From an uncultured Alphaproteobacteria bacterium (lineage in GTDB: Bacteria; Pseudomonadota; Alphaproteobacteria; RF32; CAG-239), in NCBI GenBank assembly GCA_944390355.1, contig CALXPT010000001.1:47115-111114 (forward strand): 64,000 bases of DNA. The letters run 5' to 3'. Positions within the stretch are counted from its first letter, which is position 1, and every line of letters starts with the position of its first letter. Of the stretch, positions 12,332 through 64,000 are shown in pieces. The position numbers and the translations under genes are program-made. Under the pieces are notes generated by a model. The model was not told the origin of the DNA, searched no databases, and saw nothing but the letters and a program-made list of their open reading frames with translations.

Positions 12332-13189
12332 CTAAAAAGCTAGGACTGGACGAACGTAACCGCCATTGCTATTCTTACCGTAGCCGTACACACCACCATT
12401 ACTGAAGCTCAATCCCCAAGCATGGTAACTAGAATTCTCGGAAGAAGACCAATACCAATCTGTCCCCAATTTTGTTCCGCCGATTTTCCCTAAAGCCGTG
12501 TTCAAAACATCTTTATTTTGATATATGGCATTCAACTCTCCCATAGCTGGCAAATACCAATCTCCGGCTTTTGTTCCATCTGTTTTATAGCTATTCACAT
12601 ATTCAACTGCAGGACAACCTCTCACATTCGTCTTGCAATACTCCAACACCAAACGCGTATTATTTTTACCTTGCCAATCTGCTGTTGCCGCTGATGATGA
12701 ACTATAATTTGATAATGTCGGTACATCAAAATATTCATCCGACCATTCTTTCCTCTCTGTATCCAATCCTATCGCCAAATGGTTAGTCGTATCAAACACC
12801 ACACCGATTGGCTTTTTAGACGCTACAACATTCGGATCACAACTCTTATCCGAATACAAGATATCGCCGATTTGACAATTACTCGACGATGCTCCGTTTT
12901 CTATTGTTACAATTTTTTCCTCTATTGTTGTTATTTTATTAGTGATTTCCGTTATCTTATTCGTTTGTTCGGTTATTTTGTTAGTTAGCTCCGTTATTTG
13001 AGTGCTTAAATCGCTTGCTGTGCAGTTCCATGCATTGCCGAACGGGCATTTAATACCGCCGTTACATGATTGACTGGAAGTATACCCCAAACTTGAACAA
13101 CTCGGGGTTTGGATACAGGCAGCCTCCGCCACACCGCTCAACAAACCACTCACCATCAAAGCTGATGAATATAATAAAAACTTTCTCAT
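12332..13189 (-). CDS. Secreted DUF1566 (Lcl C-terminal-like) protein with NKIT heptad repeats, cassette copy 1
   Basis: Signal peptide MRKFLLYSSALMVSGLLSGVAEA, Cys-rich N-module, tandem ITE(L/Q/I)TNKIT repeats, C-terminal DUF1566-like motifs (GDWYLP..EL, DWYWSSSE, AWGLSFSNG). Start moved to the internal Met. Confidence 0.7.
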   Translation of the reverse strand: MRKFLLYSSALMVSGLLSGVAEAACIQTPSCSSLGYTSSQSCNGGIKCPFGNAWNCTASDLSTQITELTNKITEQTNKITEITNKITTIEEKIVTIENGASSSNCQIGDILYSDKSCDPNVVASKKPIGVVFDTTNHLAIGLDTERKEWSDEYFDVPTLSNYSSSSAATADWQGKNNTRLVLEYCKTNVRGCPAVEYVNSYKTDGTKAGDWYLPAMGELNAIYQNKDVLNTALGKIGGTKLGTDWYWSSSENSSYHAWGLSFSNGGVYGYGKNSNGGYVRPVLAF

Positions 13190-13296
13190 TTTCTTTCTCC
13201 TGTAGGCGGGGCCTACCGCCACCAATTTTGCATTGTGCCCAGACCACCGCATTGTTAATAATTATTGGTTATTTTTCCCTCTCTCTTGACTTTGAA

Positions 13297-14157
13297 CTAT
13301 TGTTCAAAAGCGCAATAGTCGCACCAGTCGGTGCAGCCGGTTGCGCAACCGGTTACAATATATAAACTCGAGCATTCCTCATAAGTGCAGACCGAACACG
13401 GCGGACATTCGCTCTCCGTGCCTAAGTTCGGGCAGGGCTCACATTCCGAACACAAGGTTGTATTACCTGTTCGACAAGTCGGTGTGCCTGCTTTGCACCC
13501 CATATCGCCGCAGTCCAAAAATCCCGAACAGTCTTTCTCTTTGATTTGGTACAAATCACCATCACAAGATTTACAAGGTTCTCCGTCCGCCTCATAACCG
13601 TCGGGAATAGAACCTAATGTGTATTTGTATTCTGCCGGACAAGTCGGCGTACAACAGTCTTTGTATAAACCATTGCCGCAGACCGTACCGACACCTTTTA
13701 ACGGAGCTTCGCAAGTTTTGTAATCACTCGGACAATCCGGAATACATTCGGCAAAATATTTGTTATTCAGCGGACAATATTTGTTGCCTTTATAGCCGCT
13801 TGGGCAAGAGGTTTTGTCATAGCCCATTTTGATACAGCTGTCGGCATCACCACCCCCTGGGGGAATAACTTCCGGTGTGCCGCTTTCTAAATCCGTGCCG
13901 ACAAAATCCGCGCCGCCGCAGTCTTCGGTATCGGTGATAAAGCACACCTGCGCAACTTTAACCTCCGGCCGCTCGCTAAAACTCGGCGAAGACAAATGTC
14001 GAGCCATGAGGTGTGAAGTGTGTGATGTGTGTAATTTAGCATAGCTCGGAACTGGAGGTGCTTTCAGATTAAAACCAATTGATGCTTGAGCTTGATTATC
14101 CAACCAAGCCAAGCTTAATGCTGTTGCACACAGCAAAAGGCAACCCTTTTTCATCAT
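13297..14157 (-). CDS. Secreted cysteine-rich protein (~40 Cys), cassette copy 1
   Basis: Signal peptide; CxxC and CPxxY-rich modules; ~80% identical to the 38965..39840 product. Confidence 0.7.
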   Translation of the reverse strand: MMKKGCLLLCATALSLAWLDNQAQASIGFNLKAPPVPSYAKLHTSHTSHLMARHLSSPSFSERPEVKVAQVCFITDTEDCGGADFVGTDLESGTPEVIPPGGGDADSCIKMGYDKTSCPSGYKGNKYCPLNNKYFAECIPDCPSDYKTCEAPLKGVGTVCGNGLYKDCCTPTCPAEYKYTLGSIPDGYEADGEPCKSCDGDLYQIKEKDCSGFLDCGDMGCKAGTPTCRTGNTTLCSECEPCPNLGTESECPPCSVCTYEECSSLYIVTGCATGCTDWCDYCAFEQ

Positions 14158-14346
14158 AATACACCTCGCATAAAGTTCTAATTACATTTGTCTTCACGAC
14201 TCGTATTATAACACAAAAGAAAATTCCTTTCAATAGAAATTTTCAAGGCTGGACAAGGGTTTGGGCGAAGTGTTTTGCATAAAAAATCTTTAATTCTTTA
14301 TTTACATTTTTTTGCTAGTATCCTTACAATCGACGATTAGGGAGGA

Positions 14347-18609: not shown

Positions 18610-19941
18610 TTAGGGCATAATCGTTATCGGTGCGCCGACAATCTTATAATCCAGTTTCTTAAATATCTTGGCTAATTCACGACGATTTTTTTTGACGGCC
18701 ATTACATCTCCGTATGGGGCGCGGTACATTTCCGGTACGGCTAACATTGTTATAACCTGCGTTCCCTTGAAGATGTCAGGCAACTTGCTTATCTCTTCTT
18801 TATAGGCATTGTTTTGTATATTAATAATTGACTGCAGGGTTGTGGCGGTTATTTTGCTTTTGCGGTAGGCTTTGATGGTTTTGTCGCAAGTATAGGCCCA
18901 CTCTTCTAATGAAAATCCTTGCTTGCCGACAATCTTTACAAATTCGGCATCCATTTTTAACAACTTTAATCGCTGTGCCAAGCGTTGGCAGGGATTGACC
19001 ATATCTTTCAAATTGTTTAACGGAAGTGATGTTCCCTGACTTTGTTCATAAGCGTTTATCAATACACGCGCTTCAACCAATTTTGTTTGTGTTTCCAAAT
19101 CTGAGGCAAAATCTTTCAAATCGGATAATGTCGAAATAAAGGCTTTTACGTCTGCCGAACTTAACGGAGATGTTTGAGTCGGCTCGATTGTGCGGAGTTT
19201 GTCCGCCAATTTCGGGGCGTAAGGATTTTGGCTCGGAAAATAATTTTCGGGCGGGACGAGTTTTTTTATTCGCTCCATAAACGACGCATCATATTTGGTT
19301 TGCGGCAAATTTACCTTGGGCTTCGGGTATTCTGTCGGAAATTTATACCCAGGCCAGACTTCCGGCATCAGCAAAAAATAAAGATACGGCGACAAAAACT
19401 CAATATTTGGTATGTTTTGCAACTGAGGCGCAATTCGCTCCGGAAATTTGTTTTTGGTTTCTTTTATCCCCGGCATTTGTAAAATCCGCTCCGACATATT
19501 CGGCACTTGGTGCAAATAGGGGCCAATGTAGGGATAAACCTCTTTCGGCAGCATTTTAATCATCGCATAAAAATAGTCTTCGCCCTGACGCTTTAGGCGT
19601 TTGTCGCTCATGCCGAAAGCGGCAATCTTGGCTTTGAAATCAGGTCGAAATTTTTGCCCGATATTCCATGTGAATTCGTAGCCGTAATCATAATATTTTT
19701 CTTTGGTATAGGCTTTATGCAAATCCTCATACTCCGGAAATTTGGCATTGATATCTACGGCAAACAACTCTGCATTATTCTTGTTCTTGGGGATTGCGTT
19801 TTGATTATCTTCTACATCGATAACCATTTGCGGCTCTTTTGACTTCATCGCAAAGGTTATGGGGGCAACTGAGGCCTCTGCTCCGACGGCCGCCCCCACA
19901 AAATACAACAAAGATAATATCGTTATCCTTTGTTTTTTCAT
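18610..19941 (-). CDS. Secreted hypothetical protein, 443 aa
   Basis: Signal peptide; 6 nt downstream of the preceding gene on the same strand, so likely an operon. Confidence 0.5.
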   Translation of the reverse strand: MKKQRITILSLLYFVGAAVGAEASVAPITFAMKSKEPQMVIDVEDNQNAIPKNKNNAELFAVDINAKFPEYEDLHKAYTKEKYYDYGYEFTWNIGQKFRPDFKAKIAAFGMSDKRLKRQGEDYFYAMIKMLPKEVYPYIGPYLHQVPNMSERILQMPGIKETKNKFPERIAPQLQNIPNIEFLSPYLYFLLMPEVWPGYKFPTEYPKPKVNLPQTKYDASFMERIKKLVPPENYFPSQNPYAPKLADKLRTIEPTQTSPLSSADVKAFISTLSDLKDFASDLETQTKLVEARVLINAYEQSQGTSLPLNNLKDMVNPCQRLAQRLKLLKMDAEFVKIVGKQGFSLEEWAYTCDKTIKAYRKSKITATTLQSIINIQNNAYKEEISKLPDIFKGTQVITMLAVPEMYRAPYGDVMAVKKNRRELAKIFKKLDYKIVGAPITIMP

Positions 19942-19947
19942 TTTACT

Positions 19948-21411
19948 CTATCTCAATGATGACTGCGCATTTACATTAGTTAATGTTACCTCATAGGTCA
20001 ATGTGGTCTCTCCCGATGCAGGAATTTTGACAAGCCAGTTCTGCTCACTGCTGTTTTTCTTTTCTCCTTTGAGATTTTCTTTGGTGATTTTCCACTCGGT
20101 ATTGCTTGCAAAGTTTTGTGTAAATTCAATTTCGACATCTTCGGTTTTGGCGTTTTTGAACGTATGTGCAACCGTGGCAATCAATTTGTCTTTAGAAATC
20201 GCTTTTATCTCATCTATTTTGCCGTCTATGGTGATGTCCGAGGCCGTGCCGATTGTGAGTTCGGCTTTTTCATTAACAGGGAGCATCGGCAACCTTGCTT
20301 CTCCGATAAATTGCTGACGGTCTTGCGAATCTTTGGCAAAAAAGCGTATCGTCCCTGTAGGCAACGGCGTACCCAGCCCGTTTTCCGCTTTATTTTCCAG
20401 CTTATAGACTATTTGCGGGTGCGCTTTTTCATATTTACCGTAATTTCTTGCGCTGTAACTCAAATATATCGGCGAATTTGACCGGTATTCTTTGGTATAT
20501 CGAACATTGTTTTTATCTATCAGACTAACCTGTTTGTTCTGCTTGTTTAACAGAGTTGTTTTTTCCGGCAATGTATAAAGATAATAATCGCTAAATGATT
20601 CTTGCGAAACCGCTGATTCTGCATTTAAACCGGCCGCAGAATCGTAACTTACGGTTTTGGCCGCACGCATCATCGGGGCTTGCGGGGCATAATTCGTAAA
20701 ATTACGAACATTGCCCGAAATTAGCTGTATCGACGCATCCTTATAATCTATACCAGATTCATTGGTTAAACTCACAAAACTTTTTAATTTTATATACTCA
20801 TCCGTTATCACATCCGCTACATAGTCCGCTTTCCATGACAGTCCTCTTGTCATGTAATCAAGCGTGAGGTCTTGTTGTCCTTGTTGTTGCGCGCGGACAT
20901 CTATGACTAATGTCGGTTCATTGCGCAAACCTGACGGAATTTCCTTGTATATTATACGGCCTGGGAATGCGGTTTCTATCCCGTAGCTAAAAGCCAGCAC
21001 GGGGTGGCTGTCGCCCGCATCCAAAATCAAGGCTTCATCGTATTTCGTTTCGCCCGTTTTTTCATCGTAAAGTGCTGTTTTTACTTTTTGACCAACCGAA
21101 TTTTGCAAAATGTTTTGCGGATTGATTAAGTTATAATTATAATTTTGCTCTAATACCTCTATGCCGTTGCCCTGCAACATTGCCGTTTCGGGCAGCAATG
21201 ATGATGAAACGCCCGCAAAGGCTATTTGATTTAGCCCTTTTTCTAAAGAAATTTCACGGCTATCACTTACAAAGGCTAAGTTTGAATTATAAATACTTAA
21301 ATGCAAGGCGTTTTGTGCCGATGTGTCTACTTTATTTTCCTTTGCCATGGCGGCTGCTGGAAGTGTTAAACCTATACATATTCCATACATGAAAATTTGC
21401 TTTAGTTTCAT
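19948..21411 (-). CDS. Secreted DUF4139/DUF4140-like (MuiA-like) protein, 487 aa
   Basis: Signal peptide; N-terminal pattern LSIYNSNLAFVSDSREISLEKGLNQIAFAGVSSSLLPETAMLQGNG resembles the DUF4140 N-domain. Confidence 0.45.
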   Translation of the reverse strand: MKLKQIFMYGICIGLTLPAAAMAKENKVDTSAQNALHLSIYNSNLAFVSDSREISLEKGLNQIAFAGVSSSLLPETAMLQGNGIEVLEQNYNYNLINPQNILQNSVGQKVKTALYDEKTGETKYDEALILDAGDSHPVLAFSYGIETAFPGRIIYKEIPSGLRNEPTLVIDVRAQQQGQQDLTLDYMTRGLSWKADYVADVITDEYIKLKSFVSLTNESGIDYKDASIQLISGNVRNFTNYAPQAPMMRAAKTVSYDSAAGLNAESAVSQESFSDYYLYTLPEKTTLLNKQNKQVSLIDKNNVRYTKEYRSNSPIYLSYSARNYGKYEKAHPQIVYKLENKAENGLGTPLPTGTIRFFAKDSQDRQQFIGEARLPMLPVNEKAELTIGTASDITIDGKIDEIKAISKDKLIATVAHTFKNAKTEDVEIEFTQNFASNTEWKITKENLKGEKKNSSEQNWLVKIPASGETTLTYEVTLTNVNAQSSLR

Positions 21412-23865: not shown

Positions 23866-24306
23866 TTATTCCGTGAGGGTGTCTACAAGGGTGTAGAGAG
23901 CTTGTTTTAGGTTTGGATTTTTGATTTTGGCGATAGATTTGAGCATTGCAATATTTTGTTGGTCATAGAGCGGGTCGCCTTTGTCAAAAGGAAGCGGCGC
24001 GGATGAACTATAGAGTTGGCAAGGGCTTTGACTGGCGGTTTGTTCATCCATATCATCAAAGAAAAAAGTTACCGGAACGCGCAGGATTTTTGCAAAATCC
24101 CACAAGCGGCTGGCACTGACGCGGTTATGACCTTGTTCATATTTTTGCACTTGTTGGAAAGTAATGCCGAGTGTTTGGGCTAATTTTTCTTGTGATATTC
24201 TAAGCATGAGCCTACGCATACGGATACGGTTGCCGACATAAACATCAACAGGATTAGCCGAACCGTCGGCCAAAACCCCGCGTGATTTTTTGCGTTGTGA
24301 AATCAT
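23866..24306 (-). CDS. XRE-family helix-turn-helix transcriptional regulator
   Basis: Cro/C1-type HTH (RIRMRRLMLRISQEKLAQTLGITFQQVQKYEQGHNRVSASRL); ATG at 24306 with GGGGAG Shine-Dalgarno; the track's TTG at 24315 is less likely. Confidence 0.75.
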   Translation of the reverse strand: MISQRKKSRGVLADGSANPVDVYVGNRIRMRRLMLRISQEKLAQTLGITFQQVQKYEQGHNRVSASRLWDFAKILRVPVTFFFDDMDEQTASQSPCQLYSSSAPLPFDKGDPLYDQQNIAMLKSIAKIKNPNLKQALYTLVDTLTE

Positions 24307-24337
24307 ATTAATCAACTCCCCGTTTTATGAATTGTCC

Positions 24338-24364
24338 TAAAAAAGAAAGACCGCAAAAGCGGTC
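24338..24364 (-). terminator. Rho-independent terminator separating the upstream sRNA from the XRE gene
   Basis: On the minus strand, gaccgc-uuuu-gcggtc followed by TTTCTTTTTT, located 30 nt upstream of the XRE start codon. Confidence 0.6.
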
Positions 24365-24881: not shown

Positions 24882-24947
24882 CTAGAAGAAAGTGAGAGCC
24901 GAACCGTCGGGCAAAACCCCGCGTGATTTTTTGCGTTGTGAAATCAT
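24882..24947 (-). pseudogene. Truncated 5' fragment of an XRE-family gene (first ~14 codons conserved with the 23866..24306 gene)
   Basis: Minus strand atgatttcacaacgcaaaaaatcacgcggggttttgcccgacggttcggc is nearly identical to the XRE gene start; the frame ends after 21 codons. Confidence 0.45.
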
Positions 24948-24978
24948 ATTAATCAACTCCCCGTTTTGTGAATTATCC

Positions 24979-38790: not shown

Positions 38791-38964
38791 ATTTTTATCG
38801 CTTAAGTTTTGTTACGCCTGAGTTTAGAACTCGGGCGTTTTTTTGTAAAAAGAATTCGTGCAAACCCTTGTCCAGCCCCGAAAATTTCTATTGAAAGGAT
38901 TTTTTTCTTGTGGTATAATACGAGTCGTGAAGACAAGTGTAATTTAGAAATTTTGAGGTGTATT

Positions 38965-39840
38965 ATGATGAAAAATGGTTACCTATTGCTGTGTGCAACA
39001 GCATTAAGCTTGGCTTGTGTATCTAATCAAGCTCAAGCATCAATTAATTTTAATCTCAAAGCACCTCCGATTCTAAATGTGGTTGACAGACACACACAAC
39101 ACACACCGAATTTATCAGCCCGAAGCTTGTCTTCCCCCTTTTCTAAAGAAAGAGAATTTAAGGTTGCGCAAGTTTGTTGGATAACCGATACGGATGACTG
39201 CGGCGGGGCGGATTTTGTCGGTACGGATTTAGAAAGCGGCACACCGGAAGTTATTCCCCCTGGGGGCGGAGATGCCGAAAGCTGTATCCGAATGGGGTAT
39301 GATAAAACCTCGTGTCCGAGCGGCTATAAGGGCAACAAATATTGCCCGCTCAATAATGCCTATTTTGCCGAATGTATTCCGGATTGTCCGAGCAGTTACG
39401 TAACTTGTCAATCGCCACAGCAAGGCGTTGGAGAGGTTTGCGGCAACGGGTTATACAAAGACTGCTGTATGCCGACGTGTTCGTCAGATTATAAATATAC
39501 GCTGGGTTCAATTCCCGACGGTTATGAGGCGGACGGCGAGCCCTGTATGGAATGCGACGAGGGCGGATTGAAAATCAAAGAAAAATACAAAATCAAAGAG
39601 AAAGACTGTTCTGGCTTTATAGATTGCGGCGATATGGGATGCAAGGCCGGAGCGACGACGTGTCAAAGCGGAAGTCAGGTTAAGTGTTCGGAATGTGAAC
39701 CCTGCCCGAATCTTGGCACGGAGAGCGAATGTCCGCCGTGCTCGGTTTGCACTTATGAAGAATGCTCGAATTTATATGTTGTAACCGGTTGTGCAACCGG
39801 CTGCACCGACTGGTGCGACTATTGCGCGTTTGAACAATAA
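38965..39840 (+). CDS. Secreted cysteine-rich protein, cassette copy 2
   Basis: ~80% identical to the 13297..14157 product (same signal peptide, same Cys framework, identical C-terminus GCATGCTDWCDYCAFEQ). Confidence 0.7.
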   Translation: MMKNGYLLLCATALSLACVSNQAQASINFNLKAPPILNVVDRHTQHTPNLSARSLSSPFSKEREFKVAQVCWITDTDDCGGADFVGTDLESGTPEVIPPGGGDAESCIRMGYDKTSCPSGYKGNKYCPLNNAYFAECIPDCPSSYVTCQSPQQGVGEVCGNGLYKDCCMPTCSSDYKYTLGSIPDGYEADGEPCMECDEGGLKIKEKYKIKEKDCSGFIDCGDMGCKAGATTCQSGSQVKCSECEPCPNLGTESECPPCSVCTYEECSNLYVVTGCATGCTDWCDYCAFEQ

Positions 39841-39874: not shown

Positions 39875-40789
39875 ATGCAAAAATTTTTATTATATTCATC
39901 AGCTTTGTTTCTATTGAGCGGTGCTGCGGAAGCAGCCTGTATTCAAACCCCGACTTGTTCAAGCTTGGGATATACCTCGAGTTCATCCTGCAACGGCGGA
40001 ATCAAATGCCCGTTCGGCAATGCATGGAATTGTACAATCATAGATAAAATCACGGAAATCACGAATAAGATTACAACCATTGAAGAAAAAATAACCGTGA
40101 TAGAAGAGAACGGTGGCAGCAGCTCTACGCCTGATTACAGTAATTGCAAAATCGGATCTATCTTGTATTCGGATTTTAGCTGTAACGAAAATGTTGTTTA
40201 TACTAAAGAACCAATCGGCGTGGTGTTTGATGAGGTAAACCATTTGGCTGTTGCTTTGGAGGAAAAAGAAAATGTTGCGTGGTCAACGACTGCTTTTGAT
40301 ATTCCAGGGCTCGATTTGCACCCAAGTGATGCTGAATATGATGGATGGGGAAAAAAGAACACTCGTGTAATTTATGAATATTGCAAAGCAAACGGCAAAA
40401 GCTGTCCGGCAGTGGAATATGCCTATGAATACACAACCGCCGGTACAAGTGCCGGTGATTGGCATTTGCCATCTTATGTGGAGTTTGACTATATTAGCAC
40501 TAACACGAGTACCATCAATGATACTATTAAGAAAATAAATAAAAAGCCTCTTTATGATTATTCAAATTACCATGGAAACATGCAGCAACATGTTTATTAC
40601 GTCTATTATTGGACTTCAACAGCGATAGATAAACAAAATGTTTATACATTCGGGGGTGATTATTATGGCGATAGGCGTATTATAGAAAAAACATTAATAA
40701 ATCATACAGATACCGGAAGTAGTATTTATGATGGATTTACTGGTTATTATCATTATGTTTACATATCTCGTCCAGTCATTGCTTTCTAA
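39875..40789 (+). CDS. Secreted DUF1566 (Lcl-like) protein with a shorter NKIT repeat tract, cassette copy 2
   Basis: N-terminal ~55 aa nearly identical to copy 1, fewer heptad repeats, diverged DUF1566-like C-domain (GDWHLP, YWTST). Confidence 0.65.
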   Translation: MQKFLLYSSALFLLSGAAEAACIQTPTCSSLGYTSSSSCNGGIKCPFGNAWNCTIIDKITEITNKITTIEEKITVIEENGGSSSTPDYSNCKIGSILYSDFSCNENVVYTKEPIGVVFDEVNHLAVALEEKENVAWSTTAFDIPGLDLHPSDAEYDGWGKKNTRVIYEYCKANGKSCPAVEYAYEYTTAGTSAGDWHLPSYVEFDYISTNTSTINDTIKKINKKPLYDYSNYHGNMQQHVYYVYYWTSTAIDKQNVYTFGGDYYGDRRIIEKTLINHTDTGSSIYDGFTGYYHYVYISRPVIAF

Positions 40790-41583: not shown

Positions 41584-42330
41584 ATGCAAAATTACACTCA
41601 AGATTATTTGCTCGATAAGCAGGTCAAAATTTTTCAACCGATTAACGGATACCGCGCCTCAACCGATGCCGTGTTCTTATCCGCTATGGTTTCCTCCGTT
41701 AGAAACGGTGATAAAATTTTGGATGTCGGCTCCGGTACGGGGGCTGTTTCTCTTTGCTTGGCGGAGAGATTCAAACATCTGCAAATTTCTATCAACGGTT
41801 TTGAAATTCAACCCGAACTTGCCGAGCTTGCAAACTTAAGTGCTAAAGAAAACGGTTTTGATTTTCTTAAATTTATTAATACCGACATTGCCTCTCCCTT
41901 GCCCGATGGACTCCGATTTTGCAGCTTTAATCATGTGGTTTCGAATCCCCCCTATGCGCTGAAAGATTTGCCCTCTCCCAACAAAAGCAAAGCTACCGCT
42001 CATAACCTAAATCATATGACCTTAACCCAATGGATTAACTTTTGTATCAAAATGACGGCTCCCAAAGGTTTTATCTACCTTGTTAATCGGGCTGAGGCTC
42101 TGGATGAAATTTTATTTGCTTTATACCCTAAAACCGGAAATATTCATATTTTGCCGCTCTTTTCCAAACAGGGGCAAGAAGCCAAGCGCGTGCTTGTTTC
42201 CGCACAAAAGGACTCTAAAGCTCCTCTTATCCTGCATGAGGGAATTGTTGTTCATGATGAAAACGGGGCATACTCTCCCGCGGCTGAAAAAATTCTGCGA
42301 GCCGGCAAGGCTTTTAGTCTGTCCTACTAG
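41584..42330 (+). CDS. N6-adenine methyltransferase, TrmN6/YfiC-like (tRNA m6A37)
   Basis: SAM motif VLDVGSGTG and catalytic NPPY (VVSNPPYA); start chosen at the internal Met, giving ~248 aa. Confidence 0.65.
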   Translation: MQNYTQDYLLDKQVKIFQPINGYRASTDAVFLSAMVSSVRNGDKILDVGSGTGAVSLCLAERFKHLQISINGFEIQPELAELANLSAKENGFDFLKFINTDIASPLPDGLRFCSFNHVVSNPPYALKDLPSPNKSKATAHNLNHMTLTQWINFCIKMTAPKGFIYLVNRAEALDEILFALYPKTGNIHILPLFSKQGQEAKRVLVSAQKDSKAPLILHEGIVVHDENGAYSPAAEKILRAGKAFSLSY

Positions 42331-43549
42331 TCCCGAAGTATGCTATCGGCTTATCGTTCATTGTTGCACTTTCTAATGCCTGATAGGCTTCGCTTAGAAG
42401 TTTTTTATAAGAATCGGCCGGCTCCGGATATGTGCATACGCCAAAACGGCTCTTGATTTGGTATGTTGTAAAATTATCTTCCAACGGAGCTTCTAAAGTT
42501 GATTTAATTTGGGATATTTTGGCGGTAAGCTTTTCTTCCGAATCTATTTGCGGTATGAGCAAGCAATACTCGTTTTCTTTTGAGCCATGCGCCAACGTAT
42601 AATTGCTTTCAAAACAAGTCAGCACTCGTGCCAAAATTTTTTTAAATGCCTGCTTATCCTCTCTCTTTTCAAAAATCGACGGATTTTCTATTCTGAAATA
42701 ACCTACCGCACTTTGCTCTCTGCCAAAACTAATCATGCTACTGCCTGACGGGTGGGTGCGTAATGCAACCTTTACTCTGTCTTCAAATAGCTGGTATATC
42801 GGTAATCCCGTTTCCGAATTGTAAAGTGAAACCTTGTTCTCTCCGATCATCGGGGATGTTCCAAGCAATATAAAACTAAAAGAATGGTCGTCCGGTATAT
42901 ATATTCCCTCAAAATCGACCTTTATCACGTCTCCGTTTTTGTTTTTTAAGCCTATGGGTATAACTTGTCCTTCTGTTAATACGCCGCCTATTCCAACGGA
43001 TACTTTGTCCCAATATTCCGAGGATACATACTGAAAAAAGTTGTTATCTATTACATCAAATTCGTTTTCATAACCGATTTGTTTTAAAAAAGTTGCGTTT
43101 ACATATACTATTTTATCATCACTAATTATTGCTACCAAGCGAGGAGATTTGGCAAAAACTTTGAGAATTAAGTCCCTTAGTGAAAGTGTGATATTTTCCA
43201 GATTGCTTTTCACCTCCGGTTCTTGCCTATTATGACTTTCTTTTGAAATATACTCTCTTTCTATTTCTTCCGTATCTTCTTGTGCTGCGTACGGCGGCAG
43301 TTCCGGTATCGCTTCCAATTTCATTGACTGTGCCGCCGTAGGCTGAGAAGCCTTTATTGCTTTTGGGGGATTATTATTTTCCGGCTTTCTATCTTCTTCT
43401 CCATCCAACGCTTCCAACTTGTCCAACAACACGTTGTAATCTTTTGCTTTAGCTAAAATAGAGGTATCTATCTCTTTTAGCGAATTATCGTTGCTAATTG
43501 TTTCCAAATATTCCAAAGACGAAAAATCTTCTATCGGATTTTGCATCAT
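42314..43549 (-). CDS. PAS plus degenerate GGDEF-domain protein with acidic N-terminus
   Basis: PAS-like segment followed by a GGDEF-like domain in which the GG(D/E)EF site reads GSKENEY; C-terminal GGDEF elements (SRFGVCTYP, AYQALESA) are retained. Confidence 0.5.
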   Translation of the reverse strand: MMQNPIEDFSSLEYLETISNDNSLKEIDTSILAKAKDYNVLLDKLEALDGEEDRKPENNNPPKAIKASQPTAAQSMKLEAIPELPPYAAQEDTEEIEREYISKESHNRQEPEVKSNLENITLSLRDLILKVFAKSPRLVAIISDDKIVYVNATFLKQIGYENEFDVIDNNFFQYVSSEYWDKVSVGIGGVLTEGQVIPIGLKNKNGDVIKVDFEGIYIPDDHSFSFILLGTSPMIGENKVSLYNSETGLPIYQLFEDRVKVALRTHPSGSSMISFGREQSAVGYFRIENPSIFEKREDKQAFKKILARVLTCFESNYTLAHGSKENEYCLLIPQIDSEEKLTAKISQIKSTLEAPLEDNFTTYQIKSRFGVCTYPEPADSYKKLLSEAYQALESATMNDKPIAYFGTSRTD

Positions 43550-43687
43550 CTATATTCTCCGTTATTTCCTTTTCTATATAGATTAATATTTATTAAAAAA
43601 AATGCAATTAGTTAAATTTTTGCTGTTTATTAATAAATTTGTTTTATTTTAACTTATAAGTATTTAGTTTTTTTAGAGAATATTCAT

Positions 43688-45763
43688 ATGAGTGAAGAAG
43701 AGCTTTTAACACAGCATATTAATCAGGAGACAGAAAGTACTCCACAAACAGATGCTCAAGAAACTGTTTTGGGGATGCCGCTTTCTAAAGAAACTTTTAA
43801 AAAAGTTTTAATCAAAGATCGTTTTGAGATTAATTTTGATGCTTCTATCCCTTGGTTAAATAATAATGGGGCTACCGCCTATGCCGTTTCGGATAGAATC
43901 GACACGGCTCGCAAACTTTTTGCTCTTGTGTGTGATGGTGAGACTTCTCCCAGACTTTCTATTCTACCATATCTTAAATCTATTGATAATCCGGCTCTCT
44001 TAAAACTTGTCGAATTCGGAACGGTTTGTTTGCCCGAAACAAAAAAGCATCGTATGGTTCTTATTTATGAGATGCCTTTGGGTGGAAAAGTTTTTGAAAA
44101 TGGAGTTTGTACCCTTGATTTTAAAAACAATCATGAGAAATTTAAAAATGTTATTTTAAGTTTTTTGGTTTTGTCTGAAACGCTTAAGAGCATGAACATT
44201 ACTCATCGCGCTATTCGCCCCGATAACCTCTATTTTATTGATGAAAACAAAAGCGAGATTGTTATTGGTGATTGTATTGCCGCTTTTCCTGCTTATTATC
44301 AACCTGCTGTTTATGAGGCTATTGACAGTCTATATGCTGACAAATTAGCAAGAGGAAACGGCAATGAGAAAAATGATATTTATTCTATCGGTATGACTGC
44401 TCTCGCTCTTTATGTCGGACACGAAATTTCTACCAATATTACTGATGCTGAGACCCTAAGATTGAAAATTCGTAAAAGTTCTTTTTCTTTTATTTCTAGT
44501 GTCGAAAAAATTCCTACTGATTTTAGCTCTTTATTTAAAGGTATGTTAAATGATGACAGCGGATTGCGCTGGGGCTATTCTCAGGTTTTGAGTTTTTTTT
44601 CCGGAAAACAAGTCAGCTTGGGAAATAACTCAAGTTCCGAGCGTCCCAAAAGAGCCTTAAACATTGATGGAGAAAAAGTCTATATGCCAAGAGATGTGGT
44701 ATATAGCATGCATAATAATATTTCTGAAGCTTATGATTTGATTATCCGCGGAAAACTTTCTGATTGGGCTAAAAACGGTTTGGAAAACGAAAAACTCGCA
44801 TCTCAAATCGATGCCATCGTCAAACAAGAGTTATCTTCGGCAGGAAATAAGGATTTAACTATCGCTCGCATCTCTATACTTATTGACCATTCTTTGCCTA
44901 TTCGCTATCGAAATATCTCTTTCTTTCCTGACGGTATTGCCAAAGCCGTTTTCCATGAAATGAAAAATAAAAAATCTATTAAAGATTATAACGATATTTT
45001 TTCTACCGATTTGATTAAACTTTGGTATCAGATGCAGGAAAGTTTACGCGCTCCCGGAAATATTACTGAATTTCGGGTCTATATCATGCGATCTGAAATC
45101 GGATATGGTATTGAACGTATTATTTATGATATTGACAATGATTTACCTTGCATCAGCTCATTATTTGAAAACGAATTCGTTTCTAGTGCTCCTCAGGTCT
45201 TGAAAGCATTAAATGCATCTTTTGAGCAAACAAATATTACCTCTCAACCGTATGACAGATCAATTATTGCCTTTCTTAGATGCAAAATGGGCAAGAAAAT
45301 CGACAATTATTTGGCAGGATTATATTCAAATCGCAGTGAAATTAAAGCTTCTGCTATCTTGCAACTCTATTCCATGATGCAAACTAAATTCGGCCCTTCC
45401 GAACTTGTTAATTTGGCTCGGTGGTTGGTTAATTATTGTAAACCGATGATTTTGGTCTATCATAATAAAAAATACCAAAAATATTTAGAAAAAGAGCTTG
45501 TTAAGATTTATCAACATGGAAAATTATATGAAATTTTGAATTTACTTGAAAATGAAGCTGCTTTGGAAAAAGACAGAAATGATTTTGCGGCTATCCTTAA
45601 CGAAGTTAATCTTTTGCTCCTTGAAAAAAATAAAATTTCTGATTATATGGCAAAACTTGGAGAATCCGCTCGAGCTTCAGCTCTCAAACTGGCTTCTTTC
45701 GTTTCTGTTTTAGTTATGATTGCTTCTTTTGCCTACAATCTTATCTCTTGGGTGTTAAATTAA
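43688..45763 (+). CDS. Protein-kinase-like fold protein (probable pseudokinase) with C-terminal TM anchor, 691 aa
   Basis: Subdomain VIb-like HRAIRPDN (catalytic Asp replaced by Ala), VII-like IGDCIAA, IX-like DIYSIGMTALAL; C-terminal hydrophobic tail; AT-rich gene. Confidence 0.45.
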   Translation: MSEEELLTQHINQETESTPQTDAQETVLGMPLSKETFKKVLIKDRFEINFDASIPWLNNNGATAYAVSDRIDTARKLFALVCDGETSPRLSILPYLKSIDNPALLKLVEFGTVCLPETKKHRMVLIYEMPLGGKVFENGVCTLDFKNNHEKFKNVILSFLVLSETLKSMNITHRAIRPDNLYFIDENKSEIVIGDCIAAFPAYYQPAVYEAIDSLYADKLARGNGNEKNDIYSIGMTALALYVGHEISTNITDAETLRLKIRKSSFSFISSVEKIPTDFSSLFKGMLNDDSGLRWGYSQVLSFFSGKQVSLGNNSSSERPKRALNIDGEKVYMPRDVVYSMHNNISEAYDLIIRGKLSDWAKNGLENEKLASQIDAIVKQELSSAGNKDLTIARISILIDHSLPIRYRNISFFPDGIAKAVFHEMKNKKSIKDYNDIFSTDLIKLWYQMQESLRAPGNITEFRVYIMRSEIGYGIERIIYDIDNDLPCISSLFENEFVSSAPQVLKALNASFEQTNITSQPYDRSIIAFLRCKMGKKIDNYLAGLYSNRSEIKASAILQLYSMMQTKFGPSELVNLARWLVNYCKPMILVYHNKKYQKYLEKELVKIYQHGKLYEILNLLENEAALEKDRNDFAAILNEVNLLLLEKNKISDYMAKLGESARASALKLASFVSVLVMIASFAYNLISWVLN

Positions 45764-56251: not shown

Positions 56252-57136
56252 ATGGCTGATGCTAACAGCGATGATGAATTTGAAAAATTATTAAATGATT
56301 TTATTTCGACTCAGCTCGAAGATGTCGACCTTGATAAGGTTTCTTCCGTTACCAAGGAAGCTGCCATTAACAACGTTTCCGACGTTGAAGTTCCCTCTTT
56401 GAACAAGTCTCATCCTACTTCGGAACAAGATGATGATGATGAGTTGGCTGCGCTTAAAGAAGGTGAAAAAGCTTTATTTAAAGCCTATCATAACTTTAAG
56501 GATGCCATTGATATGATGGCCGAAGAAAACAAGCTGCCTCCGATTGCGTTTAGAGTTCAGCCGGATAAACTTGTCCCTCACTATAAACCGTCTGTCGGAA
56601 AACTCATTGCCGAAGATACTCTTGCCGGTTGGGATGTCATGATTCAATGCGACCCTGATACGTTTGTTCAAATCCGTCATGACATGACAGACGAACAGCT
56701 ACTCGATTTTGCCGAAAAAACTAATGATGATGTCGTCCAATTCGCTTTGATTTCTTATGTCGAAATTTTGATTGAAATGGAAGGATGCGAAATTTCTTAT
56801 AAAGAACGCAAACTTAAACGCGAAAAGAAAAAACTCGAACGCAAAATTTATGAAGACCATCAACGCCGGATTGAATTGATTAACCGCTACATTAAAGCCG
56901 TGCAGGAAAAAAACTTTCCCATTGATGCCGAAAGGCTTGTTAAAAACTATTTTAAAACCGCTAAAAAAGACCCCGACGGCGCTTATAAAGTTTTAACACA
57001 GAATCCCGCCGTCTATGCTCCGATTCAAGTCGATAAAATTAAACCAAGGTTCTTCGGCCTTTTGAAAGTTAAGCCTCAGGACGGTATTCGGATGAACAAA
57101 CTTATCGGGGAATTTTTGAAAAAGCTAAAAGCATAA
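56252..57136 (+). CDS. Acidic hypothetical protein, 294 aa
   Basis: N-terminus MADANSDDEF, similar to the start of the next gene (MADENDKF). Confidence 0.45.
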   Translation: MADANSDDEFEKLLNDFISTQLEDVDLDKVSSVTKEAAINNVSDVEVPSLNKSHPTSEQDDDDELAALKEGEKALFKAYHNFKDAIDMMAEENKLPPIAFRVQPDKLVPHYKPSVGKLIAEDTLAGWDVMIQCDPDTFVQIRHDMTDEQLLDFAEKTNDDVVQFALISYVEILIEMEGCEISYKERKLKREKKKLERKIYEDHQRRIELINRYIKAVQEKNFPIDAERLVKNYFKTAKKDPDGAYKVLTQNPAVYAPIQVDKIKPRFFGLLKVKPQDGIRMNKLIGEFLKKLKA

Positions 57137-57228
57137 TTATTTTGCGGAAAATAATAGACAAAAACTAAAAATTGTGTTAAAGTAGTATTCAGATAAGAAA
57201 GCATATTTTGATTTAAGGTAGAATAAAA

Positions 57229-58875
57229 ATGGCTGATGAAAACGATAAATTTCCGGTTCACGTCAACAATAACAACGGCAACTCAAACTCTGCCGTGCGA
57301 CCTACGGAGCGCAATGGTGCAACACCCAATACACCTATGCCGACACGGACAAACGCAACGCCGAACACGCCTATGCCGACACGGCCGTCCATGACACCAA
57401 ATACGCCGGCTACATCTCGGCCGTCCATGACGCCGAACACACCTATGCCCGTGCAACACAATATGCCGCAACCCGTACAGCATCAAACACCGAATCTTCC
57501 GCAAAAATTTGCTCAGGAAGATGAGAACTCGTTGACCGTTGATGAAATCAAAGAAACCGACGTCAACGAAAAAGAAGATACCTTAACCGTTGATGAATCT
57601 AAAGAAACCGATGTTCATGAGGCCGAAGACACTCTTGTTGTTGATGAAGCAAACACGGCAACCGTTCATCAAGCCGAAAATGAACAACCACAAACACCGG
57701 TTGAACCCGAAAACGAAAATACAGATGATCAAACCGGTGAAGCGGAAAGACGTCCAGATGAGCCGGCCAACACCGATTTGGACAGCGACAAAAAAGGTCC
57801 GTTTGCTCCCAAAGACATTATCGAATATATGTTTAATGACTGGCTCATCGGCGGAATGAATGAAGCTTGGTGCTGGCTCTCAAAAAAAACCGACCTTGCC
57901 TATTATCGCGACAGATATGAAAAACGCCGTAAAGCCAATAATAAGGTCGAAGCCAAAGAGGTGAAGGAACACCAGACCTTTAAGGATATGGAAACTCTTG
58001 ATAAAATGGCCAATGATGACATCGCCAAAAAGAGCGAAAGCATCGGTCGATATAACAGCTTGGTTGAAACGGCAGATAAAATCCGTGAAGGCAAAATTGA
58101 TGAAACTAACCTCAGCCCCGAGGCTAAAGCCGATTTGAAAGCTGCCGATCAACAAAAATTGCAACAATTTTTGAACCCGCAGAGTATTCAAAAGGCTCAA
58201 GAAAATATGAAAATGACCTTGGAGGCGGCGGCGGTTTTTTCCAACAACTATGCTTTGTTGATGGCGATGGATGCCAAAATGCAAAATTCTTCGGCCGAAG
58301 ACCTCAAAGATATGAAAAAAGCTTTTGCCAAATATCAGGCCGAAGGTTTTAAGTTTTATGCCAAAGCTATCGGTGATGCCGTTCGCAGCGGGCAAGACCC
58401 CAATCAGGTCAACCAGCAACTCATGAACATTGTTAATCAAGGTATCGATAAAATGCATAAAGACGTTACCAAAGGAAACTTTGACGGGTGCAACAAGAAG
58501 AGACTTATCGGACATAAAAAAGGAAAATACAAAGGAAATGAGTTTGTTGATAAGTTAAATGCTTTGCGCAACGGCGTGGATTTGGACAACTATCAGCCCA
58601 TGTCTTTCCGCGAGGCGGTGGTTATGTCTCAGGCTTATGATACGCAATCGCAATACAAGCTTGATGAGTTGGCTCTGAGTTCGGCTCGCGCGGCTAACGA
58701 CAACCGCCGCAACAGCGCACATCAAGCGATTGATAATATGAATAATCCTTACTATAATAATTCCCGCGGAAATACGCAGACTCAAAATCAGCAGCAGTCT
58801 CAATCCCATTCGCAAACGCAACAAAATCAACAAGTGCCGCCGATTAATCCTAATTTCAGAGACGGGGGCAGATAG
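57229..58875 (+). CDS. Repeat-containing protein: Pro/Thr-rich N-repeats, acidic 16-aa repeats, Q-rich C-tail; 548 aa
   Basis: Tandem nucleotide and amino-acid repeats (TPNTPMPTR; EDTLTVDE.KETDV); no TM. Confidence 0.5.
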   Translation: MADENDKFPVHVNNNNGNSNSAVRPTERNGATPNTPMPTRTNATPNTPMPTRPSMTPNTPATSRPSMTPNTPMPVQHNMPQPVQHQTPNLPQKFAQEDENSLTVDEIKETDVNEKEDTLTVDESKETDVHEAEDTLVVDEANTATVHQAENEQPQTPVEPENENTDDQTGEAERRPDEPANTDLDSDKKGPFAPKDIIEYMFNDWLIGGMNEAWCWLSKKTDLAYYRDRYEKRRKANNKVEAKEVKEHQTFKDMETLDKMANDDIAKKSESIGRYNSLVETADKIREGKIDETNLSPEAKADLKAADQQKLQQFLNPQSIQKAQENMKMTLEAAAVFSNNYALLMAMDAKMQNSSAEDLKDMKKAFAKYQAEGFKFYAKAIGDAVRSGQDPNQVNQQLMNIVNQGIDKMHKDVTKGNFDGCNKKRLIGHKKGKYKGNEFVDKLNALRNGVDLDNYQPMSFREAVVMSQAYDTQSQYKLDELALSSARAANDNRRNSAHQAIDNMNNPYYNNSRGNTQTQNQQQSQSHSQTQQNQQVPPINPNFRDGGR

Positions 58876-58893
58876 TTTGGAGATTTTACCGGC

Positions 58894-59376
58894 ATGAAAA
58901 AAACTCTTAAATTCTGTTTTGTCGGCGTGGTTTGGTCCGCTCTTTTCTTGGGCGGTATGAACCTCTTGTTCATGCTGCTTTGGAATTTTAATCTGTTCCA
59001 CTGGTCTGACTGGAAAATTATTGCTCTTTTCTGGAATAGCGGCGGGGTTATTCGTTCCGCTTCCGATTTTGCGTTTTTGCTCCTCTTAGTACTGTGTTTT
59101 ACCATATGGATTTGGGGTTGGAAAAAAGCCCTCAAAATTAATGTTCTCGCTATTTTGATGAAGCCTTTGGAATATTATCGCAAATATGAGCTTAAAAAAT
59201 ACGGCGAATCGTCAAGAATTGTCTTGAAAAACATCGGCTTTTCGGCTAAAACTGGTAGTGATGACGAGATTATTAAAACCGAGCTGAAAAAAATCGCAAA
59301 AGAAATCGATGATTCTAAAGAAGTTCCCAAAATAAGAGAAGTTGTTAACGAAAGAATCAGCGATATCAAAAAATAA
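58894..59376 (+). CDS. Membrane protein, 160 aa (N-domain paralogous to the next gene)
   Basis: Shares a W-rich TM layout with the 59433..60842 N-terminus. Confidence 0.45.
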   Translation: MKKTLKFCFVGVVWSALFLGGMNLLFMLLWNFNLFHWSDWKIIALFWNSGGVIRSASDFAFLLLLVLCFTIWIWGWKKALKINVLAILMKPLEYYRKYELKKYGESSRIVLKNIGFSAKTGSDDEIIKTELKKIAKEIDDSKEVPKIREVVNERISDIKK

Positions 59377-59432
59377 TCTCTTGTTAACTTATGTATGCTA
59401 GCATATTCTATCTGTTATGAGGATTTTGTGCA

Positions 59433-60842
59433 TTGAAACCTTTGGTTATTTTAACGAGAATCTTATGTGTCGGCCTCTTTTGGAGCTTGTTCTTCATTGA
59501 AGGCGTCAGAGTGATTATGCTCCGTAACTGGCATTTTGATATCTTTCAGACTGCACACTGGAATCATGCTTGGAATCTTTGGCTCTCCGGTTGGGTTATT
59601 CGTACCCCTAAGGAATGGGCCTTCGTTCTTATCATTTTGACTTTTATTCCCCTCTGGTTGTGCGGATGGTCCGCTCTGAGTTTAATCAAATGGGAAAAAA
59701 TCGCCGTTAAAGCTGCTGATTTTCCTGTCATTTTGTTCCGCAAATTCTTCTTTCGTCCGGTTAAAATCATTACAACTTCGGGCGGGATGAAAAACATCAA
59801 AAAGAAAAAATCTTACAAAGAAGTCCGCCCCAAAAGTTTGCGCTTGCCTCTTGATGAACGCCCCGATGTTATGCCAAGCAATTTGTTACAATCTCCTCGT
59901 GCAAAGTTCTCTGCCCCGCAAAGTGTTGCAAACTTCGGTGCTACTCCGGTTGGACAGACAAATCCGACACCGGCTCCTACTCCTAAATTTCTCGAAACTC
60001 CGGTTTCTTCCGAGCCTAAGCAGTTTAGCCATTCTTTGTTTGATATGGACAGCAAAGATGATGATTTTGATTTCAATATCGATGATTTTGATTTAACCGA
60101 ATCCGATAACAAAAAATCATCTCCCGAAGAAGCTCCGCGTAAAAACCTTCCGCAAAAAAGAGATAATCAACGCGAGATGCGCGATAACTCTCCTAAGGAT
60201 AATTCTTCAAGGGATAATGCTCCCAGAGAACGTAACGGCAAAAAAAATCGTGATAATAATGCCAATTTACCCGCAACCGCCCGCCATAATAACCAGCCGG
60301 CAAATACAAAACAAGCTAATCTGCCGTCTCAACCCAAAGGCAGCGGAAACTCCGTTTTGGATGTTATTAAACAGCATGGGTTTGATGTTATTGCCGGTGC
60401 GACCATTAAAAACAACCTTATTGATTTTATCGGTGTGGCTCAAAACCAAATCGTCCTTTGTCTGATTGATAAAGAAACAGGAGATTGGCTCGCCGATGAA
60501 GAGCGTTTTAATGATGAAGAGCCTTTATGGTTTTCGGAAAGCAGCCACCGAATTTCTCCGGTCAGAAAAGTAGACATTGCGCGGAAAGTGCTTACGGAAA
60601 CTCTTGATACTCAAGGATTGCGCTTTGAGGTTAAGCCCTTTGTCATCGTTTCTATCGGAAATATTATTAATGCGGAAGATATGTTTGACATTTGGGATGA
60701 TTTAGGTGTCAATGTTACGCGTATTGACCGCGGAACGCCCAAAGAAATTAAACTTTTTGCCAGAACTCTGCCTGATGCTCGAGAGCCTATCGGCAAAGGG
60801 GATTTTGAAAATATTAAGAAAATTATTCATAACATTGCATAA
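59433..60842 (+). CDS. Membrane protein with disordered linker and a C-terminal globular domain (possible PD-(D/E)xK/NERD-like)
   Basis: TTG start; C-domain contains D...CLIDKE...EVK; ends 18 nt before the coupling-protein gene. Confidence 0.4.
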   Translation: MKPLVILTRILCVGLFWSLFFIEGVRVIMLRNWHFDIFQTAHWNHAWNLWLSGWVIRTPKEWAFVLIILTFIPLWLCGWSALSLIKWEKIAVKAADFPVILFRKFFFRPVKIITTSGGMKNIKKKKSYKEVRPKSLRLPLDERPDVMPSNLLQSPRAKFSAPQSVANFGATPVGQTNPTPAPTPKFLETPVSSEPKQFSHSLFDMDSKDDDFDFNIDDFDLTESDNKKSSPEEAPRKNLPQKRDNQREMRDNSPKDNSSRDNAPRERNGKKNRDNNANLPATARHNNQPANTKQANLPSQPKGSGNSVLDVIKQHGFDVIAGATIKNNLIDFIGVAQNQIVLCLIDKETGDWLADEERFNDEEPLWFSESSHRISPVRKVDIARKVLTETLDTQGLRFEVKPFVIVSIGNIINAEDMFDIWDDLGVNVTRIDRGTPKEIKLFARTLPDAREPIGKGDFENIKKIIHNIA

Positions 60843-60860
60843 GCTGTTTAAGGAGTTGAT

Positions 60861-63145: not shown

Positions 63146-64000
63146 CTAAAGCTTTGTCCATATCTCTACCTCTAAAGCACTGTCCATAGTGGTCTCACCT
63201 GCAAATATTGTATAACACGTTTGTCCATCGCCTTCAGTTATTGTCTTAACTTCATTCGTTAAAAAGTTATAGCATTTGTAGCTGTTTGAACCTACTTTTT
63301 CAGCAAAATAAAACCGATTTAATATATCATCTGAATAAGCTTTTCTTAAAGTGCTCAAATTATCACCATATACACTTGAATCTGAAAATCCATTAACATC
63401 ATTTGAGCCGTCAGTTAGTTCTACAAGAAATTCTTCCCAACGAACCTGATACGCACATGCCTTCTCTGATTCATAGTAATCTACACCGGCCAAACCATCA
63501 GGATAGTCGCCAAGACACATATATTTATATGCTCGAAATCCATTTGCTGAACTCCGCTTTGGCTTTGTTGCTTCTACTGAATTACTTAAATCAACAATTC
63601 TGTCTCTTATTAGGCTAGAAGAATCATCCCAATTATATTTATATCCAATAATTACGCCGACTAATTTACCATATCCACTCTGTATTGACTTAAAACAGTC
63701 TCCGCTACCATACAAATAACCTCTAAAATTACATCTCTTTCTCGGACAATGTTTATAAGTTCCTCCACATCCATTATCATCGGTAACATAACTATTGGGA
63801 CAAGAACGCAAATTGCCATCTTGTCTTGGAGTACATTTTTTACAAACTGTTCTTGCTCCGCCACATCCATCATCTACTGCTACCGTTCCATTAGGACAAT
63901 TTGTCTCACTTGGTAATGGCGTACAACTACAGGCCCATTTTTCTCCAAACGGACATTTGAGACATCCTCCTGTATTGGTACTGCTATTATATCCTAATGT
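63146..64000 (-). CDS. Cysteine-rich secreted-type protein, 5' end beyond the window
   Basis: The reading frame stays open upstream of the track's TTG at 63811 (no stop to the window edge; repeated ...DDGCGG...CKKCTP...RSCPNSY... modules). Confidence 0.5.
   Translation of the reverse strand, partial: TLGYNSSTNTGGCLKCPFGEKWACSCTPLPSETNCPNGTVAVDDGCGGARTVCKKCTPRQDGNLRSCPNSYVTDDNGCGGTYKHCPRKRCNFRGYLYGSGDCFKSIQSGYGKLVGVIIGYKYNWDDSSSLIRDRIVDLSNSVEATKPKRSSANGFRAYKYMCLGDYPDGLAGVDYYESEKACAYQVRWEEFLVELTDGSNDVNGFSDSSVYGDNLSTLRKAYSDDILNRFYFAEKVGSNSYKCYNFLTNEVKTITEGDGQTCYTIFAGETTMDSALEVEIWTKL

Follow-up and report, generated by a model that had tools for sequence, protein, structure and literature searches.

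What are two exported proteins, in each of which more than every tenth residue is a cysteine, doing on an otherwise ordinary alphaproteobacterial chromosome? The genes that raise this question lie about 25 kb apart in what we here call the window, meaning the whole stretch of DNA that was analysed, 64,000 nucleotides in length. A preliminary description had presented them as members of a small family of secreted, cysteine-patterned proteins. It had overlooked that the cysteine-rich genes do not stand alone: each opens a cassette of two genes, and within a narrow clade this cassette has been massively amplified. We set out below what the two genes encode, what accompanies them here and elsewhere, and which function is best supported by the pattern.

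Table 1. Coordinates of the cassette features, in window numbering unless stated otherwise
Feature	Position	Strand	Details and basis
Cys-rich family gene, copy 1	13297..14157	-	286 aa; ORF
Layout of the copy 1 product	residues 1-26; 27-~100; ~104-286		signal peptide; poorly structured linker; Cys-rich core
Cys-rich family gene, copy 2	38965..39840	+	291 aa; 31 Cys; ORF
Partner gene 1	12332..13189	-	285 aa; gene as called in L001/L079
Partner gene 2	39875..40789	+	304 aa; BLASTP against partner 1: 2e-81, 58% over 248 aa
21-nt (7-codon) tandem repeat, 3.3 copies	12930..12999	-	TRF; encodes ITExTNK heptads of the partner 1 coiled coil
Conserved upstream region of copy 1	14158..14286	-	sigma-70-like promoter and GAGGTG ribosome-binding site
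Conserved upstream region and promoter of copy 2	38838..38964	+	counterpart of 14158..14286; inverted repeats I4/I5, alignment
Partner-class gene of the third cassette	63146..64000	-	truncated at the window edge; 314 aa when complete (L077)
Genuine third Cys-rich member	~64103..65041		312 aa; ~100 nt past the window end, directly upstream of gene 63146..; contig L077

Two Cysteine-Rich Paralogs

The two complete open reading frames that had been singled out do exist, and they encode paralogs with 81% identity. Each product contains 31 cysteines, 29 of them after the signal peptide, where about 40 had been counted, and the family has two members in the window instead of the three proposed. The unusual cysteine density was borne out: it amounts to 10.8%, whereas 40 other window genes have a median of 1.0% and reach 3.0% at most. 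Of the motifs that had been quoted for the family, CPSGYKGNKYCPLNN, CCTPTC (or CCMPTC) and CSECEPCPN are present in the Cys-rich copies, and DDGCGG comes from a different protein, encoded at the window edge by gene 63146.. Between the two copies dS is near 0.9 and dN/dS is 0.17 over the whole gene, falling to 0.12 within the Cys core; the Cys-rich part is under purifying selection. A search over 5.8 billion proteins recovered 81 homologous clusters, none of them named, and in an alignment of 66 sequences 26 cysteine columns are invariant or nearly so. Given the low dN/dS, the homologous clusters and the conserved cysteine columns, we regard both copies as real genes. An ortholog of copy 2 (P0016) is found in the same kdsB context.

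Secretion was likewise supported, as both copies begin with a Sec-type signal peptide (MMKKGCLLLCATALSLAWLDNQAQA, cleaved before S) that is conserved across the family. In copy 1 the core accounts for 27 of the 29 mature cysteines, and it contains no histidine. The protein has six CxxC motifs, including CxxCxxC runs at residues 236-242 and 251-257, and ends in CDYCAFEQ with no hydrophobic C-terminal segment. The linker of copy 1 carries a TLHTHL-like motif and KVAQVCFITDTEDCGG. Within this linker (13858..14079 on the minus strand, residues 27-100 of copy 1; likewise in copy 2), T44, H46 and T47 of the TLHTHL-type motif, an LSP and a KVAQVCWIxDTxDCxG block are near-invariant. These are the most conserved non-cysteine features superfamily-wide, yet AF2 predicts the region to be unstructured; an anchor, a sorting signal and a partner-binding strand are candidate roles.

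Domain Libraries, Structure Prediction and Literature

The absence of a known domain was confirmed: in Pfam and NCBIfam scans that covered five proteins, neither copy has a match at E≤0.1. At E≤1 copy 1 matches no Pfam family and copy 2 gives a chance-level Fn3 match only (E 0.25). The Lcl_C profile (PF07603), which will concern us in the partner genes, does not match the Cys-rich proteins themselves, and a profile search of the PDB returned only a chance match (E 0.1). Metallothionein, ferredoxin and zinc-ribbon families gave no match at E≤1 in Pfam and NCBIfam, nor did Chlam_OMP3 and Chlam_OMP6 (OmcA/OmcB) at that threshold in Pfam. For EGF-like and TNFR-type modules the window proteins yielded no Pfam profile match and no significant structural match, EGF_TEN and RANK_CRD_2 being matched by single distant relatives only; Giardia VSPs (PF03302) gave no Pfam match, and the hydrophobic C-terminal segment is lacking. 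Cysteine-rich RiPP precursors (e.g., NF033413, SCIFF-type) gave a chance-level match only (E 0.44), to the edge gene 63146..64000, and the proteins at issue are 286-314 aa long with signal peptides, in a neighbourhood of rpoZ, uvrC, kdsB and a HAD hydrolase gene. A tblastn search of phage and plasmid collections found no match to the Cys-rich family, so that it is not evidently part of phage tails or carried by plasmids. Scanning the window for Rfam families and tRNAs returned nothing, and a literature search on DUF1566 together with cysteine-rich proteins found no description of the family.

AF2 models residues ~100-240 with confidence (pLDDT 80-93 in the first of two models, 87-96 in the other) as short beta-hairpins only, and leaves residues 1-100, the proposed anchor region, unstructured. 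The second model is that of a natural fusion, P0021, in which the Lcl_C head is poorly modelled (pLDDT 25-50). Foldseek returned nominal neighbours only, namely the EGF arrays of uromodulin and fibrillin, none of them significant. The CxxCxxC runs might suggest an Fe-S or ferredoxin-like protein, a reading that was dismissed because the signal is Sec, the subfamilies do not conserve the motif and no family matches. Homology to metallothionein-like cytoplasmic proteins had been named as an example of what would refute the proposal; the conserved Sec-type signal peptide, the lack of a family match and the loss and gain of cysteines in pairs all speak against it. The family is absent from domain libraries and from the searchable literature, and the locus would represent an Lcl_C-type adhesin set on a novel Cys-rich domain, in a large cassette family.

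The Partner Gene and the Cassette

Downstream of each Cys-rich gene, in the same orientation, lies a partner gene. The gap is 107 nt for copy 1, where a GGAG ribosome-binding site is found, and 34 nt for copy 2. The whole cassette is duplicated in inverted orientation, including ~115 nt of conserved upstream sequence. A promoter scan of copy 1 found TTGAAA-17-TGTTATAAT at 14233..14205, with 11/12 matches and an extended -10 element, and a conserved strong promoter is predicted for each cassette, in a region that serves both of its genes, which lie 2-110 nt apart. The promoter, 5' UTR and signal-peptide coding sequence (14080..14286 compared with 38838..39042) have a dS of ~0.13, against ~0.9 in the rest of the genes, which suggests recent gene conversion or strong constraint at the 5' end.

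The partner consists of a signal peptide with an AxA site (cleavage between VAEA and ACIQ), an N-terminal module with five cysteines (CIQTPSCSSLGYTSSQSCNGGIKCPFGNAWNC), an Ile-rich heptad coiled coil and an Lcl_C/DUF1566 head. The ORF of partner 1 (12332..13252) matches Pfam Lcl_C (PF07603) with 40.7 bits (E 3.4e-10), above the gathering cut-off of 34.9 bits; partner 2 alone remains below it (17.9 bits, E 0.004), and the precomputed PF07603 annotation is found on most of 120 listed partner homologs. The NCBIfam Lcl equivalog (NF046116) scores 26.2 bits against the partner, in the head only, its cut-off being 500 bits. The stalk is built of ITExTNK heptads and not of GXY triplets. Isoleucine at heptad positions a and d favours trimers. 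The length of the heptad repeat varies between paralogs, partner 2 being shorter by 17 aa here. Identity between the two partners falls from 83% in the N-terminal module to 35% in the head, where four cysteines are found. At 90% identity the partner family comprises 1095 homologous clusters, as against the 81 of the Cys-rich family. A lipoprotein reading of the N-terminal cysteine of the partner was considered and dismissed: an AxA site for signal peptidase I recurs consistently among paralogs, and the putative lipobox would have E, N or Q at position -3.

The cassettes are surrounded by ordinary alphaproteobacterial chromosomal genes, including spoT, rpoZ, lepB, rnc, era, uvrC, gcrA, motAB, murC and kdsB. 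Within the 64-kb window neither Dsb nor T2SS nor other export machinery was detected, and its annotated genes show no reverse-transcriptase or template-repeat signature. Several other features of the window deserve mention in their own right. Directly downstream of the cassette 2 neighbourhood, at 42314..45763, a 691-aa protein with a weak Pkinase match is encoded next to a 411-aa protein with a weak GGDEF match, an unusual signalling pair. Two large adjacent ORFs at 18610..21411 (-), of 443 and 487 aa, are blank in Pfam or have a weak DUF4139 match, and the pair is kept in related strains. A direct repeat of 99 nt occurs at 24256-24354 and 24897-24995, its copies 97% identical and 641 nt apart; the first spans the start and upstream region of a gene for an HTH_3 (XRE-type) regulator (23866..24315, minus strand), and the second lies in an apparently non-coding, GC-rich stretch.

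A Third Cassette at the Window Edge

The edge gene 63146.. was rejected as the third Cys-rich member it had been taken for: its BLASTP E value against copy 1 is 0.17, and its N-terminus is of the partner type. In the signal peptide and N-terminal 5-Cys module it matches the partner genes (BLASTP E 7e-7; hhalign probability 96%, E 2e-9), and these are followed by extra Cys modules, among them DDGCGG, and by a head without a Pfam match. This different head behind the same 5-Cys module points to the module as the constant, cassette-specific interface. The genuine third member lies just beyond the window, in a contig (L077) that shares the final 947 nt of the window at 100% identity; the full edge gene and the upstream 312-aa Cys-rich gene are both present in L076-L078.

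In these three assemblies the DNA of virD4 is 99.9-100% identical and the adjacent Cys-rich protein 94-97% identical, whereas identity in the partner head drops to 70-90%. Despite the near-identical flanking virD4, the head encoded by this third-cassette gene (10269..11230 in L076-L078, orthologs of 63146..) differs by 10-30% between strains, and marks a hotspot of strain-level variation. The virD4 gene in question, at 60861..63053 (+), encodes a VirD4/TraG-type T4SS coupling protein (Pfam T4SS-DNA_transf, TrwB_AAD_bind and TraG-D_C). The third cassette abuts the virD4 cluster (56252..63053, plus strand), in which virD4 is preceded by four same-strand ORFs (294, 548, 160 and 469 aa) with no Pfam match that may be unrecognised T4SS components or substrates.

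Pairing, Fusions and Distribution

A scan of 185,579 species genomes yielded 71 related loci, all of them in a handful of MAGs labelled as uncultured Alphaproteobacteria or "proteobacterium," with 26 loci in one MAG and 20, 15 and 4 in others. Many of these loci are at contig ends, as is expected for repeats. The Cys-rich family is confined to a small number of MAGs of uncultured Alphaproteobacteria, in which it can number 26 copies or more per MAG. The operon-like pairing seen in the window recurs: in 46 of the 71 loci a same-strand partner directly follows the Cys-rich gene at a distance of 2-73 nt. When the test was reversed and partner proteins were taken as the starting point, an upstream Cys-rich gene was present in both testable contexts (P0353 and P0337); a third partner, P0356, was left out of the count because its contig starts 37 nt upstream.

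In about ten loci (426-672 aa) and in P0021 the two are fused in one ORF, which runs from the Cys-rich core into an Lcl_C-type head. Four segments are missing together from these fusions: the Cys-rich tail and, on the partner side, the signal peptide, the 5-Cys module and the coiled coil. An exhaustive profile search placed the family in a wider superfamily of 325 clusters at 50% identity, in which the N-terminal motif and Cys modules stand ahead of an Lcl_C-like head in P0158 and of a beta-helix-like head in P0151, and P0098 is a tandem array of the whole core. Varied heads behind the same motif, together with the tandem array, are stalk-like behaviour. One further cassette (L082, 3574..4813) comes from the same sample as a contig identical to the window and lies two genes away from those for the small and large subunits of a phage terminase, which may indicate a prophage or a gene-transfer-agent cluster.

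Cysteine Parity

The number of cysteines follows a pattern of its own. Complete stand-alone Cys-rich proteins hold 25, 27 or 29 cysteines, an odd number, in 33 of about 35 cases, and the count is odd in 46 of 50 partners, where the extra cysteine is at mature residue 2-3; in complete long or fused forms it is even in 10 of 11, all of these being counts of paralogs that are not independent, with the third cassette breaking the rule (32 cysteines in the Cys-rich gene and 19 in the partner). Cysteines come and go two at a time (29, 27, 25), as disulfide bonding would predict, and the first CxxC of the 236-242 run is missing in whole subfamilies. The parity suggests that one unpaired cysteine is held by each of the two proteins and that a heterotypic disulfide could form between them. 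Co-variation of the Cys-rich tail with the partner N-terminus was also considered as a sign of co-evolution, and was discarded since physical linkage fully explains it. A comparison of the 4-Cys GY module of the Cys-rich protein with the N-terminal module of the partner gave a weak hhalign probability of 31%.

A Proposed Mechanism and Its Alternatives

We favour, with a probability of roughly 0.55, a two-component surface adhesin with interchangeable lectin-like heads, in which the Cys-rich protein would act as the disulfide-rich stalk or anchor. It is the synteny, the fusions, the superfamily architectures, the constant 5-Cys module, the parity, the selection on the Cys-rich part, the Lcl_C match and the promoters that point to this model, from which we infer disulfide formation, surface location, docking and ligand binding. 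After export, the ~180-residue core would meet the oxidising periplasm and fold there as small beta-hairpin modules, stapled by disulfides, that line up in a rigid string and resemble EGF in architecture but not in sequence, and the N-terminal linker with its KVAQVCWIxDTxDCxG block would hold the protein on the cell envelope. The partner, probably a trimer (isoleucine occupies heptad positions a and d, and the heads of Legionella Lcl trimerise), would dock onto the Cys-rich subunit through its 5-Cys N-terminal module. One intermolecular disulfide may contribute to docking, since cysteine counts are odd in both partners and mostly even in fusions. Once docked, the partner would display its C-type-lectin-like Lcl_C head and bind a host or environmental glycan; a host-directed role, as had been proposed, is something we infer from the head domain only. 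With dozens of cassettes, conserved stalks and hypervariable heads would amount to a repertoire of binding specificities or antigenic variants.

The same genes could be read in other ways. A freely secreted, disulfide-knotted ligand, toxin or host effector, with an Lcl_C neighbour that is merely co-regulated, for example as an attachment factor bringing the cell near its target, would agree with the signal peptide, the compact disulfide-type scaffold and the lack of an anchor recognised by any library; moreover, one cassette adjoins the VirD4-type coupling protein gene, and the sole nominal Foldseek neighbours are eukaryotic EGF arrays. We nonetheless think it unlikely: the recurrent core-head fusions and the core arrays of P0098 point to a structural spacer, the Cys-rich part is conserved under purifying selection while the head varies, and T4SS genes neighbour only one of the three cassettes, T4SS effectors being in any case not delivered through Sec signal peptides. 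The two adjacent genes for exported Cys-containing proteins, with odd cysteine counts that suggest intermolecular disulfides, also bring to mind a cross-linked outer-membrane complex like that of chlamydial OmcA and OmcB, which would stiffen the envelope and leave adhesion a secondary role, chlamydial OmcB being itself a glycosaminoglycan-binding adhesin. The odds of this appear small, however, as Pfam gives no match to the chlamydial families at E≤1, normal peptidoglycan and LPS genes are nearby (those for MurC, LdcA, KdsB and LpxC), and dozens of diverged paralogs with hypervariable heads better fit variation of a ligand.

Metal binding, which had been offered beside the disulfide-rich extracellular role, fares worse than the latter, and we hold it to be very improbable that the protein is a periplasmic or extracellular metal binder, metallothionein-like or Cys4 zinc-ribbon-like, that buffers or scavenges metals. 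A density of 10.8% cysteine and six CxxC motifs, two CxxCxxC runs among them, would be in keeping with such a role. The signal is of the Sec and not the Tat type, though, no metallothionein, ferredoxin or zinc-ribbon family matches at E≤1 and the core is free of histidine; whole subfamilies have lost the first CxxC of the 236-242 run and cysteines change in pairs; AF2 gives high-confidence beta-hairpin modules without any metal; and an obligatory pairing with an adhesin head would have no rationale.

The stalk-and-head reading can be carried further, to an undescribed bacterial surface system in which an all-disulfide domain of ~180 residues and new fold, as a universal and protease-resistant stalk or anchor, would carry interchangeable trimeric lectin-like heads through the 5-Cys module and a single heterotypic disulfide, and in which at least 26 recombining cassettes per small genome would furnish a repertoire of variant adhesins or antigens. 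This fuller version we advance tentatively, as a possibility with more doubt than confidence attached to it. If true, it would give bacteria an equivalent of the variant surface proteins, likewise rich in cysteine, of eukaryotic parasites. The stalk-and-head reading itself, if correct, would add a new domain family, probably with a new fold, to the few heavily disulfide-bonded bacterial surface modules, and would reveal a plug-in mounting, split or fused, for Lcl_C/DUF1566 lectin-like heads. A little-known clade of uncultured Alphaproteobacteria would then be seen to devote dozens of promoter-equipped cassettes to variable binding. Glycan arrays probed with the heads and antibodies to the conserved stalk would offer handles on the targets of attachment. 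The system would be a natural setting in which to study heterotypic disulfide docking and paralog-based surface variation in bacteria, and the conserved stalk could serve as a clade marker or enrichment target.

Comparison With Known Systems

The chlamydial proteins OmcA and OmcB are exported Cys-rich envelope proteins, encoded by adjacent genes and thought to be linked by intermolecular disulfides; OmcB is a glycosaminoglycan-binding adhesin. The cassettes share with them the adjacency of genes for exported Cys-rich proteins. They differ in that no homology is detectable by Pfam, the cysteine density is much higher here, the system is modular and multi-copy with variable heads, and the bacterium that carries it has ordinary peptidoglycan and LPS genes.

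EGF-type and TNFR-type modules and the variant-specific surface proteins (VSPs) of Giardia are the familiar examples of Cys-rich extracellular repeats. The window proteins resemble them in a cysteine content of ~11%, in CxxC motifs, in a signal peptide and in belonging to a large, variable multigene family, and would also resemble them in having small disulfide-stapled beta-hairpin modules that form a protease-resistant, extended ectodomain. They show no significant sequence or fold match to these proteins, however, and, unlike the Giardia VSPs, the Cys-rich proteins have neither a C-terminal transmembrane anchor nor a CRGKA tail. Furthermore, the Cys-rich part is here the conserved one and a separate lectin-like head the variable one, and the organism is a bacterium.

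The closest parallel to the partner is Lcl of Legionella pneumophila, a secreted, surface-attached trimeric "lollipop" whose C-type-lectin-like DUF1566 head binds glycosaminoglycans (PMC11162425). The partner has the same C-terminal head domain (PF07603, above cut-off) and the same order of signal peptide, N-terminal attachment element, elongated oligomerising stalk and globular head, and we adopt the "lollipop" as a working model. The parts are nevertheless differently made: an Ile-rich heptad coiled coil forms the stalk in place of the GXY collagen repeats of Lcl, a 5-Cys module stands at the N-terminus where Lcl has an amphipathic helix, and the heads contain four cysteines whereas the C-terminal domain of Lcl is without disulfides (PMC11162425). 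Nor does Lcl have an equivalent of the dedicated upstream Cys-rich partner, sometimes fused, and it is a single gene as against the dozens of paralogs here. DUF1566 is, finally, a recurrent target of diversity-generating retroelements, which use it as a hypervariable ligand-binding scaffold (PMC5758913, PMC4159848). The heads described here belong to the same domain family as that scaffold, but their diversity arises from paralog amplification and probably from recombination.
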